Source: a virus. Taken from it: a stretch of 64,000 bases of DNA. The notes beneath the pieces were generated by a model that made no database searches, had not been told where the DNA came from, and saw only the letters and a program-made list of their open reading frames with translations. The stretch covers positions 13,360-77,359 of IMG/VR virus record IMGVR_UViG_3300042691_005581, one strand, 5' to 3'. Of this stretch, positions 10,629 to 62,731 are shown in pieces. Position 1 is the stretch's first letter; each line of letters begins with the position of its first letter. Made by a program: the position numbers and the translations under genes.

Positions 10629-11068
10629 TAGCTGATCTCTGATTTGCCTTGGCCTAAGTTGTTAACATTGATATAGCCCGAACCTCTCCGGTCCATATCA
10701 ACTCCTGATTCAGCTCCGATATTCCGGCACAAATCTTGAAACCATTTGTCGACAATTTCTTCATCTGTTTCACCGTAATAACCTGCTAGTCTTAATTCTA
10801 CTATAAAAAGCTCGTTCCAGTCAAGTTCAAAAAATCCATTCTTAACATTGTCCTTATTGACTTTGGTATCCAATACAGCAATATAAGATTCATTGCGTTC
10901 GGTTGCTAACTCTTTTGGACTCAGTTTAGATAATCTTTCTGCTTCTGCGGCATCTGCAATTACTTTGGCAGCTCTTTCAGTAGCTTCCTGAAGTTTTTTT
11001 TCTGCTTCGACAGTAGCCTGCTCTAGTTTATCAATTCCGAATATTTTTTTAATAAATTTTTTCATCAT
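10628..11068 (-). CDS. Hypothetical protein
   Basis: Coiled-coil N-terminus and GFFELDWN motif; start placed at the ATGA overlap with the queE stop. Confidence 0.6.
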   Translation of the reverse strand: MMKKFIKKIFGIDKLEQATVEAEKKLQEATERAAKVIADAAEAERLSKLSPKELATERNESYIAVLDTKVNKDNVKNGFFELDWNELFIVELRLAGYYGETDEEIVDKWFQDLCRNIGAESGVDMDRRGSGYINVNNLGQGKSEIS

Positions 11069-11925
11069 GTACCCCACTCATTCTTAAACAATGGAACTTG
11101 TAAACGATCACTATATCGCAAGCCTGCTCGCATGGCCAAATCTGCCACACGTCGATTGTTTAGGGAATAGACACTTTCTACTCCACCAACTGGCATTAGA
11201 TATACATGACCTTTGAATCCGGCAGCACGATACGCACCGATAGCACATTCAGCATCTGCAAAGTCTTGTTCAGTAGCAATAACAAATTTTAGATATACAG
11301 TGCCTACAGTTTCATAATTGCAAACAACATCTGGTTTGATAGCATCGTCCCACGGTTCTCCGGAACATGGAAGTTTGGCACTAACTGAGAATGTAACTTC
11401 TCTTTCTAGCTTATGGTCTTGATTTTGCCACATACCTAAATATGTTTTAAATTCTTTTGTTAGACGCATAGTGCCGTTGGTTTCAAATGTAATCTCTTTG
11501 AGACCTGCCATCTTTGGATTATTCAGAAGTTCTGGATAGGCTTTTTGCCAACCTAACAATGGCTCACCTCCAGTGATAACCAAGTGCTCATCCTTCCACT
11601 CACCGTGCGGAATAATTTCCATAATACGATCTGCAATAGCATCAGTAGTCAGCATAGGACTTAGATCTTTAAATTCGGGCATCCAGCTGGCGTAGCTGTC
11701 ACAACCTGTACTAACTAGTGGTAACATCTTGTAGTCTGCATAGGGTGTAATCTTGTGAGCTTTTGCAATGTCTTCGGCTTCTGCACTCAATTCTCCGCGA
11801 GACATGCCAAACCCTTGACATTTAAAGTTACATCCAAATGTACGTAAGAAGACGGAAGGTACTCCCATGTACCTTCCTTCACCTTGAATACTGTAAAAAA
11901 GTTCTGATATTTTAATTTTATTCAT
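11065..11925 (-). CDS. queE: 7-carboxy-7-deazaguanine synthase (radical SAM)
   Basis: SELFYSIQGEG, FLRTFGCNFKC...GCDS (insert in the CxxxCxxC motif), ITGGEPLL, ETNGT; near folE. Confidence 0.88.
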   Translation of the reverse strand: MNKIKISELFYSIQGEGRYMGVPSVFLRTFGCNFKCQGFGMSRGELSAEAEDIAKAHKITPYADYKMLPLVSTGCDSYASWMPEFKDLSPMLTTDAIADRIMEIIPHGEWKDEHLVITGGEPLLGWQKAYPELLNNPKMAGLKEITFETNGTMRLTKEFKTYLGMWQNQDHKLEREVTFSVSAKLPCSGEPWDDAIKPDVVCNYETVGTVYLKFVIATEQDFADAECAIGAYRAAGFKGHVYLMPVGGVESVYSLNNRRVADLAMRAGLRYSDRLQVPLFKNEWGT

Positions 11926-13914: not shown

Positions 13915-14613
13915 TTACCTCGGAGCAAAGTCTTGTTGCAATTTAATGTTATCAAAGAATTCTTTCTTTGTACTTTGATCGTCTTTAAATGCACCTTTTA
14001 ACACAGTAGTCTGTGTCAATGAACTATGTGCCATGATGCCGCGATTCTCACAGCATCCATGAACAGCCTGTACATAAACGCCTACGTCTGTTGCGTCTGT
14101 TGCTTTTTGGATTTCCCTAGCAATATCATTACAAAGTTCCTCCTGGAGAGTCCCTCGTCTTGCACACCACTGGGCGATTCGTGTGTACTTTGATAATCCA
14201 ATAAGTTTGTTAGCAGCCAAAATGCCAATATAAGCAACGCCACTAACGGGTTGGTGATGATGACTACACATACTGCGAAGCTCACTACGAACAACCAGCA
14301 TACCTTCGTAGCGGTCCTGCGAATCATTTGGAAATGCTGTTGCGTCTGGTGCTTGTTCATATCTACCTGCCATTATTTCGTTGAAATACATTTTAGCCAA
14401 CCGGCGTGCTGTACCTTTTGAGTTAGGATCATTTTCACGATCAATTAGCAATGTATCTAGCACTTGTTCAAATGCCGCAGTTGCTTCGTCAATTAGTTCT
14501 GGCAACACATTGTCATCAACATATTCGCTAATGTTGTCTCCTGCCCAGAAACGTTTGTTATCGCTACGCATTCTATTACGAATTACCTGCGATAGGTTCT
14601 TACTTGTATCCAT
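13915..14613 (-). CDS. folE: GTP cyclohydrolase I
   Basis: T..RLAKMY, SMCSHH, IGLSKY.R, LQEEL, HGCCENRG. Confidence 0.95.
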   Translation of the reverse strand: MDTSKNLSQVIRNRMRSDNKRFWAGDNISEYVDDNVLPELIDEATAAFEQVLDTLLIDRENDPNSKGTARRLAKMYFNEIMAGRYEQAPDATAFPNDSQDRYEGMLVVRSELRSMCSHHHQPVSGVAYIGILAANKLIGLSKYTRIAQWCARRGTLQEELCNDIAREIQKATDATDVGVYVQAVHGCCENRGIMAHSSLTQTTVLKGAFKDDQSTKKEFFDNIKLQQDFAPR

Positions 14614-60904: not shown

Positions 60905-62082
60905 TTTTTAATAAGGTCTGTTACTTGTTTAGCAGTAGCAGGACTTAGTGTCCATCCTAAATGTCCGTGCCCTGCATGATAGAATACCTTTGTATTCTTT
61001 TTGCTTTGTTTAACAACAGGCAACATGTCTGGTGTCATTGGACGTAGACATGCCCATTGTGTATAATCGTGTGTGTTGATATTAGGAAAGTTTTCATGCA
61101 CCCAATTCAAAAGAGGTTCGATGCGATCTCGACGAATGTCGTAGTTTTCTCCCGTCAGTTCCGCAGTGCCTGCAACACGTAATTTATTACCCAATGTGCT
61201 GGTTACAATCTTAGCTTGATCATCTAATAAACTTACTCGGGGCAGATATTTAGGATCAACATTGTTGATGGTAATTGAATATCCCTTAACTGGGTAAATG
61301 TCTAAACTGTCACCTATACTGTTAGCTAACTTTTCAGAACCTACACCTGCTGAAATTACAATAGCATCGTAACAATCATCGAGAATTTCTATATCATATG
61401 CTGATTTGATTTTGTCATGATAACGAAATTCAACCCTGTATTTCTTTTCCAATACATTTGTTAATTCAATACAAAACTTATGTATGTCTCCGGTCCAGTC
61501 GCTAGGAGTCCAAGCACCGCCGACTATGTTTTTTAAACTAGCTAGTGCAGGATCTAAACTAGCAGTCTGCATAGGACTTAACATATTCCATTCACAACCG
61601 TAGGCATTATACAGTTCTTTTACACTAACTGCATTTTCTAGATACTGCGGATCTTTATAAAAATGTAAAATACCGCAATAACTTTGATCAAAGGATAGCC
61701 CTTCTTCTTCGATAATCTTTTTGTAGAGTGCTCTAGATTTAATACCTAGTTGAATAGTAGTTGCAGTATTTCTAACATAATCGCCTTTGACAGTATTCAA
61801 TAGAAACTTTGCCATCCACTTCCATTGTGCCCAATCTAGTCTAGGTCGGATCAACAAAGGAGCATCTTTCTTGAACATCCACTTGAAGCCTTTTTTAACA
61901 TTCCCCCAAGTTGTCCAAACTTCACTGTTGCTAACTGATACTTGTCCGCCATTGGCAAAACTAGTCTTCATTGCAGGATAGCGTTCTGCTTCATAAACAG
62001 TTACGCTATACCCTTCTCGAGCAAGGTAGTAGGCTGTTGTAAGTCCGGCAACACCGGCTCCGATTACTACTACTTTTTTCAT
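60895..62082 (-). CDS. FAD-dependent D-amino acid dehydrogenase-like oxidoreductase (DadA family)
   Basis: GAGVAG, TSFANGG, YPVKGYS, RVAGTAE, LRPMTPD, GHGHLGWT; start reassigned to MKKVV. Confidence 0.88.
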   Translation of the reverse strand: MKKVVVIGAGVAGLTTAYYLAREGYSVTVYEAERYPAMKTSFANGGQVSVSNSEVWTTWGNVKKGFKWMFKKDAPLLIRPRLDWAQWKWMAKFLLNTVKGDYVRNTATTIQLGIKSRALYKKIIEEEGLSFDQSYCGILHFYKDPQYLENAVSVKELYNAYGCEWNMLSPMQTASLDPALASLKNIVGGAWTPSDWTGDIHKFCIELTNVLEKKYRVEFRYHDKIKSAYDIEILDDCYDAIVISAGVGSEKLANSIGDSLDIYPVKGYSITINNVDPKYLPRVSLLDDQAKIVTSTLGNKLRVAGTAELTGENYDIRRDRIEPLLNWVHENFPNINTHDYTQWACLRPMTPDMLPVVKQSKKNTKVFYHAGHGHLGWTLSPATAKQVTDLIKKCN

Positions 62083-62083
62083 A

Positions 62084-62611
62084 TTAGCCTTCGTAAATTG
62101 CCGAGTTGCCTGCGTGTTCAAACACTTCAGCTGATTTTAGTCGAACACCTGCACCTACTGGATAACGTGCTTCAAACACACGACCGTCTGGATGAGTCCA
62201 ACCACGGCCTTCTTGATATGCAGTTAAGATTTCGTTCATAACGCGATAGACCAATTGAGCAAACATTTCACAACCTACTCCGTCTACGATGCGTAGGTCA
62301 ATGATGCCCATGTTTTTAAAACCGCCTTGAATTCGATTTAGTTCTACAAATGTATTGCGCTCTGGGTCATCCTTGGCAATTACCGTGGTGTGATCGAACT
62401 GCCATTCACTCCACTCTTTAAATGCTTTGAGCCCGCCAAAGTCCATGACCCAATTGCGGTCATCTAATGTTTCAGATTCAAAAATTAATTTGATACCAAG
62501 TGAGTACCCGTGTAACATAGCACAATGACTATGCACTGACCGCCACTGTCTAAAACAGCATGACAGCCCTCTGTCGTTACCGTATGTTTTTGTTGAAAGA
62601 TATTTTGCCAT
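62084..62611 (-). CDS. queD: 6-carboxy-5,6,7,8-tetrahydropterin synthase
   Basis: HCAMLHGY, WVMDFG.LK, FDH, CEMFA, VFE...NSA.Y. Confidence 0.88.
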   Translation of the reverse strand: MAKYLSTKTYGNDRGLSCCFRQWRSVHSHCAMLHGYSLGIKLIFESETLDDRNWVMDFGGLKAFKEWSEWQFDHTTVIAKDDPERNTFVELNRIQGGFKNMGIIDLRIVDGVGCEMFAQLVYRVMNEILTAYQEGRGWTHPDGRVFEARYPVGAGVRLKSAEVFEHAGNSAIYEG

Positions 62612-62702
62612 CTCTAGTCTCCTTATTGTATGAGCAAGTTTGACGACATGCAGAATTTATATAGCGGGTTGAATGATCGTGTAAGACCGCTGCCTAACTA
62701 TT

Positions 62703-62731
62703 ATTGTATAGGCAGATATTTATTCTGTCAA
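62703..62731 (-). promoter_or_regulatory. sigma70-type promoter TTGACA-17-TACAAT with nested TAAATA (62717-62722)
   Basis: Consensus hexamers about 90 nt upstream of queD. Confidence 0.8.

Follow-up and report, generated by a model that had tools for sequence, protein, structure and literature searches.

A conserved pseudoknot in the leaders of phage PTPS-family genes, a candidate translational ON switch

The PTPS gene of the window and its leader

We analysed a 64,000-nucleotide stretch (the window) of a 77-kb IMG/VR virus record. Since these 77 kb are estimated to represent 17% of a complete genome, the record should derive from a very large phage (a giant lake phage). At 62084-62611 on the minus strand lies a gene for a divergent, 175-aa T-fold protein of the PTPS/QueD family (PF01242, E 2e-12), the first of a tightly packed run. 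As an earlier note on this DNA had proposed when describing an operon, it is followed without gaps by genes for a DAO-type flavoenzyme, an RmlC-like cupin, a cytidylyltransferase-like protein and an NAD-dependent epimerase/dehydratase. The label queD given to the gene in that note turns out to be an approximation: membership of the PTPS family stands, but the protein scores 35 bits with the NCBI QueD model TIGR03367, whose cut-off is 89.25, and the CxxxHGH zinc/catalytic motif of QueD is aligned with C...HGY. The sequence suggests an altered metal site in the PTPS proteins of this phage family. Where QueD has its first zinc histidine, the window protein reads SCCFRQW.

On the same strand, and ~48-51 kb from the PTPS gene, the window carries genes for FolE (13915-14613) and for a divergent QueE-like radical-SAM enzyme (11065-11925); no copy of the leader motif described below was found 5' of either gene in the window. 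A search of five phage records, of which three are 98-100% complete, gave neither a convincing QueC nor a TGT/DpdA-family enzyme, and neither was detected in the record of the window; distant DpdA types could escape the Pfam model used. Phages with FolE, QueD and QueE but without QueC have been described, as have QueD paralogues with a different proposed role, DpdL (PMC10516641). In one phage (L175:6750-7172) the motif is immediately followed by a QueD-like gene of the classical kind (141 aa, 80 bits to TIGR03367) and then by a phage-type PTPS paralogue (171 aa), so that the two types may not be functionally equivalent (cf. DpdL, PMC10516641). The genes found 3' of PTPS differ widely among phages and include UvdE, a KdsA-like protein, Fe/Mn superoxide dismutase, an IscA-like protein, a phosphoribosyltransferase, a QueE-like enzyme and sugar-nucleotide enzymes. 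In some phages the phosphoribosyltransferase stands beside QueE, a hint that a deazapurine base may be converted to its nucleotide.

All elements of the PTPS leader are read on the minus strand. The consensus promoter reported earlier upstream of it is present as a sigma-70-type promoter-like site at 62703-62731, made of TTGACA (62731-62726), a 17-nt spacer and TACAAT (62708-62703), with 11 of 12 consensus matches. Transcription is predicted to start at ~62696-62694, that is, 3-5 nt 5' of the first helix (P1), which begins ~12 nt 3' of the -10 box. A 7-bp inverted repeat (CTGCCTA, 62715-62709, and TAGGCAG, 62696-62690, minus strand) flanks the -10 box and enters P1 by two bases. The repeat (62690-62715) looks like a small operator, or like a hairpin given a more upstream transcription start; none was found around the -10 box in the related leaders inspected (e.g. 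L024), and it may therefore be chance.

P1 has AGCGG (62687-62691) as its 5' strand and CCGCU (62663-62667) as its 3' strand, in agreement with the earlier proposal. Between them run L1, UCUUAC (62681-62686), whose first nucleotide is variable among relatives and whose next two, C and U, are invariant; the 5' strand of the second helix (P2), ACGA(U)CAU followed by UCA (62670-62680); and L2, AC (62668-62669), consisting of A62669 and the nearly invariant C62668 immediately 5' of the P1 3' strand. An A-rich linker, AUAUAAAUUCUGC (62662-62650), separates the P1 3' strand from AUGUCGU and comprises the 10-nt L3, AUAUAAAUUC (62653-62662), with A at positions 3, 5 and 7 and U and C at positions 9 and 10, plus the UGC that begins the P2 3' strand (UGC and AUGUCGU, 62643-62652). 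The core of P2 forms as had been suggested across this linker, through 7 pairs with one bulged U between ACGA(U)CAU (62680-62673) and AUGUCGU (62649-62643). On the junction side C62671 and A62670 extend P2 by the pairs U62652-A62670 and G62651-C62671, with C62650 opposite U62672. Further downstream are the Shine-Dalgarno (SD) sequence GGAG (62619-62622), 7 nt 5' of the AUG, and the start region GAUGGCA (62606-62612), which contains the AUG (62611-62609). This start region is also the partner, through 7 pairs of which two are G.U, of an anti-start strand, UGUCGUC (62642-62648), that overlaps the P2 3' strand.

The leader is, as previously remarked, GC-richer than its surroundings (0.45 against ~0.38 for the whole window). 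Folding of the window sequence by itself is no better than chance. The leader has a minimum free energy (MFE) of -14.5 kcal/mol (z +0.44), with 130 of 200 shuffles folding as well or better, and a longer stretch that includes the promoter (z -1.06) is uninformative; the case for a real structure is comparative. A search of Rfam 15 at E<=10 found no match for the leader, preQ1-I included, with either 1.2 kb or the bare 121-nt leader as search space, and nothing relevant in 16 other leader-bearing loci, so that the earlier wording, reminiscent of preQ1-I but not matching it, is upheld. In the overlap of the PTPS and DAO genes (62075-62149, minus strand) there is a weak match to the HDV-like ribozyme family RF02682 (18.8 bits against a gathering threshold of 44, E 0.97), in coding sequence and probably due to chance.

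Compensatory changes and phage-only distribution

Relatives of the PTPS protein encoded in viral contigs share the leader, with P1 strands that compensate each other (AGCGG/CCGCU, AGAGG/CCUCU, AGUGG/CCACU and UGCGG/CCGCA; a further type, ACCGG/CCGGU, was found in the enlarged set of 228 cores). A degenerate DNA pattern built from L2, the P1 3' strand and L3 matched at least 120 viral stretches, and 80 of the 80 matches inspected were true copies. When 145 distinct cores were aligned with MAFFT, 99.4% of P1 proved to be paired, with two covarying positions, and P2 showed double changes at 7 of 7 pairs in spite of mis-registration in some rows. The covariation score was 0.258, compared with 0.105 for shuffles (0 of 500 reached the observed value), a statistic that overstates independence because many of the sequences are close relatives, and with at most 0.077 for slid partners (~3-fold lower or more). 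Since MAFFT places P2 in the wrong register wherever the 3' strand of a row is shorter, we used an anchor-based count instead, in which the bases just 5' of UCA are compared, with no fitting, with the bases just 3' of CUGC. By this count 4.37 of 5 positions pair, compared with 3.37 +/- 0.07 when partners are permuted (1000 permutations, maximum 3.60), with 76 distinct strand combinations.

To counter the bias of the pattern, three further PTPS subfamilies were gathered by protein similarity only. With loci collected in this way, the motif was directly 5' of the PTPS gene in 73 of 80, 38 of 79, 76 of 80 and 73 of 80 cases in the four subfamilies, through which a total of 228 distinct cores was assembled, almost all from uncultured phage contigs. 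Among these cores the first P1 pair is A-U in 201 and U-A in 14, the second G-C in 218 and C-G in 9, and the third C-G in 121, A-U in 63 and U-A in 43. The first pair of the P2 core is U-A (111), C-G (43), A-U (26) or G-C (18); every position of the core takes several pair types, and all four Watson-Crick types are found among the core pairs. The earlier note had asked for covariation in related leaders and had named its absence as a refutation. Both helices are kept and covary across the 228 distinct leaders. Comparison of the relatives therefore confirms the leader as a structured RNA pseudoknot maintained by compensatory changes.

The 228 cores also show a P2 that is longer than in the earlier model. 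The UCA of loop 2 faces the UGC that ends the linker, and both are nearly invariant. The loop-2/linker pair is A-U in 221 of the 228 cores and G-C in the other 7, with no A/C or G/U combination, and the G-C form is spread over three or more sequence contexts (L314 and L344; L333 and L336; L484, L489 and L533). The neighbouring pair is C-G in 228 of 228, and next to it a U stands opposite a C in 226, with U-A in two L333-type cores. As this CA/UG covariation occurs without half-changes, P2 extends to the P1/P2 junction, a lengthening that was absent from the model of the earlier note.

Among the unpaired bases, the L1 C and U, the L2 C, and the three A's and terminal UC of L3 are identical in all parsed copies, as in ligand pockets, an invariance that is partly imposed, since the search pattern and the parser fixed parts of these loops. 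L1 begins with ACU in 93 cores, UCU in 77 and CCU in 58. L3 carries its A's (positions 3, 5, 7) and its U and C (positions 9, 10) in each of the 226 linkers that are 13 nt long. The last letter of L2 is C in 226 of 228 cores (UC in 156, CC in 35, AC in 31, and in four more at the end of an L2 of 3 nt); one lineage (L345, 1435-1486; L346; L347), sampled in three metagenomes, has U. The closest relatives of this lineage, L349 and L351, retain the C. The helix junction is where three of these elements lie: the C of L2, the beginning of L1 and the UC at the end of L3. By analogy with preQ1-I, C62668 would be a candidate specificity base, and the C-to-U lineage could be a natural specificity variant. 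From the general architecture of H-type pseudoknots, L3 is expected to dock in the P1 minor groove. Base triples of L1 with the junction pairs found no support, the L1 C and U being unchanged in the G-C variants.

With a covariance model of the leader alignment, a single copy is found in the window (55.9 bits, E 2e-20), the next match scoring 11.9 bits. In the five phage records, strong copies (55.9-64 bits) number one per record and lie immediately upstream of the sole PTPS-family gene in every case, and all weaker matches score 20.8 bits or less. The best of these (G002:C1:174031-174063, E 1e-5), far from the PTPS gene in the 300-kb relative whose leader is L050, could be a degenerate copy or chance. 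Over the wider collection, the gene right after the motif belongs to the PTPS family in ~150 of 154 cases; in the exceptions, where a cupin, a CmoB-like methyltransferase or an unknown gene comes first, the PTPS gene comes second. Boxes resembling a -10 element (sigma-70) or the T4 late promoter (WAAATA) lie 3-16 nt 5' of P1 in 90 of 151 distinct upstream regions, which would place the knot at the extreme 5' end of the mRNA.

Across bacterial and archaeal genomes totalling 596 Gb, the pattern matched 108 times, against ~140 matches expected by chance (a hand estimate from the information content of the pattern). We judged ~7 of the 108 to be true; they lie on short to mid-sized MAG contigs, with a PTPS-type reading frame next wherever downstream sequence could be seen, and are probably mis-binned phage DNA. 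Given a match rate at about chance level, so few true copies and their location in MAG contigs, we rejected a cellular origin. The distribution of the element is phage-only, and its linkage is exclusively to PTPS-family genes.

Predicted competition between the knot and the ribosome-binding site

The P2 3' strand sits 20-40 nt 5' of the SD. Among 131 distinct platforms, the best computed duplex between this segment and the ribosome-binding site (RBS) region includes the AUG in 79 cases and the SD in the remaining 52, and hence one or the other in all 131; its mean energy is -8.8 kcal/mol (z -2.6 relative to shuffles). The sequences that pair differ between platform types: GUC(A/G)UC with GAUGGC in the type to which the window belongs, GCCAUUGUU with AACAAUGGC in another, GCCUAUG with CAUAGG of the SD in a third, and AAGUCAUC with GAUGACUU where the protein starts with MTYY instead of MAKY. 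To judge from these complementarities, the P2 5' strand mimics the start region. Since the P2 3' strand can also pair with the start codon or the SD, the knot and an RBS-masking hairpin are mutually exclusive, and stabilisation of the knot should open the start site, which amounts to an ON output. In folding predictions with the P2 strands blocked, the unpaired probability of the RBS goes from 0.43 to 0.57, with an increase in 129 of 154 leaders, compared with 0.45 for a mock block.

In the window, the anti-start duplex UGUCGUC/GAUGGCA is part of the MFE structure and is predicted at -9.0 kcal/mol, against -3.8 for the P2 core duplex alone, from which a masked default state would follow. In the window by itself, the AUG gains little accessibility when P2 is blocked (0.02 to 0.06-0.09), as a downstream coding segment can pair with it in turn. 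The anti-start helix of this platform type shows one-sided changes only, as its partner is coding sequence. A putative inner helix in window-type platforms (CUUGC/ACUAG, CUUAC/GCAAG) co-varies in blocks, without clean Watson-Crick compensation.

The platforms of the form GCCUAUG...CAUAGGAG (e.g. L021:2350-2386, L035:2960-3003) have one more feature: the loop of their anti-SD hairpin carries TGnTAnnnT, which resembles an extended -10 element. Its variants (TGCTATAAT, TGCTAAAAT, TGATATAGT and TGCTATACT) show a promoter-like pattern of variation. A second, aptamer-less transcript, starting from just 5' of the SD, seems possible in these relatives.

Possible triggers and comparison with known RNA switches

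Two properties by which riboswitches are recognised are found here: a conserved, covarying leader domain that precedes functionally related genes, and alternative pairings that exclude one another and connect the aptamer with the RBS, the latter with a weak signal for the window alone. Our favoured reading, which we consider reasonably probable, is that the leader belongs to a phage-specific class of translational RNA switches and is most likely a small-molecule ON riboswitch. Its aptamer would be an H-type pseudoknot with a P1 of 5 pairs and a P2 of ~10 positions, the latter made up of a variable core of 4-7 pairs, the conserved U.C, and then C-G and A-U at the junction; the A-rich, 10-nt L3 would lie in the P1 minor groove, and the 2-nt L2 would end in the nearly invariant junction C. 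As long as the knot is not stabilised, the stronger anti-start hairpin would mask the AUG. Locking of the knot, presumably through a ligand that binds at the junction, would capture the P2 3' strand and free the start site.

We infer that the trigger is a small molecule bound at the junction C. Taken together, this cytosine and the pathway suggest an effector with a guanine-like face, such as guanine, GTP, a pterin like H2NTP, or 7-deazaguanine, and a compound of this kind from the route that leads from GTP through pterin to 7-deazaguanine is our leading guess. Against the ON reading, it would be unusual for the product of a pathway to switch ON a biosynthetic gene. The full proposal, a new phage-confined riboswitch class that senses a purine-, pterin- or 7-deazapurine-type metabolite via the junction C and turns ON translation of the T-fold enzyme, is put forward as tentative, with a chance of being right that we would not call even. 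If it is true, it represents a second, independently wired solution on a preQ1-I-like scaffold, in which switching ON the T-fold enzyme commits GTP-derived pterin to a phage deazaguanine pathway, and the C-to-U variant hints at altered specificity.

The same RNA switch might instead be set by a protein, a phage or host factor (for example a translational regulator, or the PTPS-family enzyme itself) that tips the balance between knot and hairpin, much as T4 gene 32 protein makes use of the knot in its own leader; a protein operator was also among the options of the earlier note. The architecture fits a protein as well as a small molecule, and many carriers look T4-like, with the late-promoter-like WAAATA boxes before P1. 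We nevertheless regard a protein trigger as unlikely. The element is as short as ~50 nt, and the unpaired bases that it conserves are concentrated at the junction, as is typical of metabolite pockets. It is kept before four PTPS subfamilies that diverge widely in sequence and come from many metagenomes, so that the partner would have to co-occur everywhere, and no conserved neighbouring regulator showed up among the downstream gene clusters.

A device that works without any ligand is likewise improbable, and somewhat more so. Ion- or temperature-driven pseudoknot switches exist, and here the 5' knot is transcribed before the RBS while the masking duplex of the window is thermodynamically the stronger; the knot might form first and leave the RBS briefly open until the masking hairpin takes over. 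Such an element could act as a kinetic timer, or respond to temperature or Mg, limiting translation per late transcript. A timer, however, needs only competing strands, and would leave the identical positions of L1, L2 and L3 and the conserved U.C in 228 cores unexplained.

That the leader is a bona fide, if divergent, preQ1-I riboswitch, sensing preQ1 and repressing translation like its cellular members, is in our view very improbable. Both the phage element and preQ1-I (RF00522; types I-III, e.g. B. subtilis queC, T. tengcongensis and E. coli) are small H-type pseudoknots with a 5-bp P1 and an adenine-bearing L3 after it, both occur in leaders of genes of the GTP-to-7-deazaguanine route (here a queuosine-pathway-type gene), and in both translation control is proposed to act through P2. 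In preQ1-I, U or A precedes the specificity cytosine, which is the last base before the P1 3' strand (PMC11625349), and a dinucleotide of a pyrimidine or A followed by C occupies the same place in the phage element. On the other hand, four of the six testable features taken from PMC11625349 fail. The covariance model RF00522 does not reach its gathering threshold, with no match at E<=10 even in the 121-nt search space or in the 16 other leaders. Instead of the conserved U or UU atop P1, L1 begins with A, U or C followed by the invariant C and U. P2 spans ~10 positions including the conserved U.C, compared with 3-4 pairs in preQ1-I, while topology and P1 are alike; L2 has 2-3 nt, and L3 is longer, with 10 nt ending in UC. 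In preQ1-I the P2 3' strand holds the SD or drives a terminator, giving an OFF output, whereas in the phage element it is the complement of the SD, an anti-RBS strand with a predicted ON output and hence the opposite logic. QueC and TGT-family enzymes went undetected in the five phage records mentioned above, and the element, unlike the cellular members of preQ1-I, occurs almost only in uncultured phages.

Finally, the idea that there is no functional RNA here, only a conserved promoter-proximal sequence or a chance hairpin, agrees with the no-better-than-chance folding of the window sequence alone and is almost certainly wrong, since it is contradicted by compensatory changes at 5 + 9 pair positions in 228 variants and by the strand-specific and position-specific placement of the element before one gene family.

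The sequence comparisons thus support what the earlier note had seen in this leader, a structured H-type pseudoknot and riboswitch-like candidate, and add to it the extension of P2, the anti-RBS role of the P2 3' strand and the divergent identity of the PTPS protein. We know of no riboswitch class that is essentially phage-only, and our literature search found no description of this motif. Riboswitches have been called rare in phages (PMC9004378). The element is abundant, being present in hundreds of uncultured freshwater and marine phage contigs, including genomes of 300-380 kb, and its ~50 nt bring it within reach of direct biochemistry and crystallography. The identity of its ligand would reveal which signal large phages monitor before they commit GTP-derived pterin to the T-fold/QueE pathway, and the element could serve as a compact ON switch for engineering.

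Among known RNAs, the T4 gene 32 leader shares the phage setting. It has an H-type pseudoknot at its 5' end that nucleates cooperative binding of gp32 and leads to translational repression; it is triggered by a protein and has neither the competition of an anti-RBS strand nor a junction conservation comparable to that of the phage element. SAM-II and SAM-V riboswitches are H-type pseudoknots with a triplex, in which a pyrimidine-rich L1 lies in the major groove of a long second helix and an A-rich L3 in the minor groove of P1. They control translation of methionine/SAM genes by masking the SD upon ligand binding (OFF), and SAM-V is found in aquatic bacteria. The H-type knot and the translational control are alike in the phage element, which has no Rfam match to either family, and by analogy with them a triplex in the phage element is a conjecture. 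The logic predicted here is that of the adenine riboswitch of Vibrio vulnificus add, in which a strand of the aptamer pairs with the RBS when ligand is absent and is captured when ligand binds, freeing the start site; there the aptamer is a three-way junction rather than a pseudoknot, and the gene class and hosts are others. The phage element would thus join this ON logic to the topology and the junction cytosine of the smallest known aptamer family, yet apparently with the opposite output to that family.
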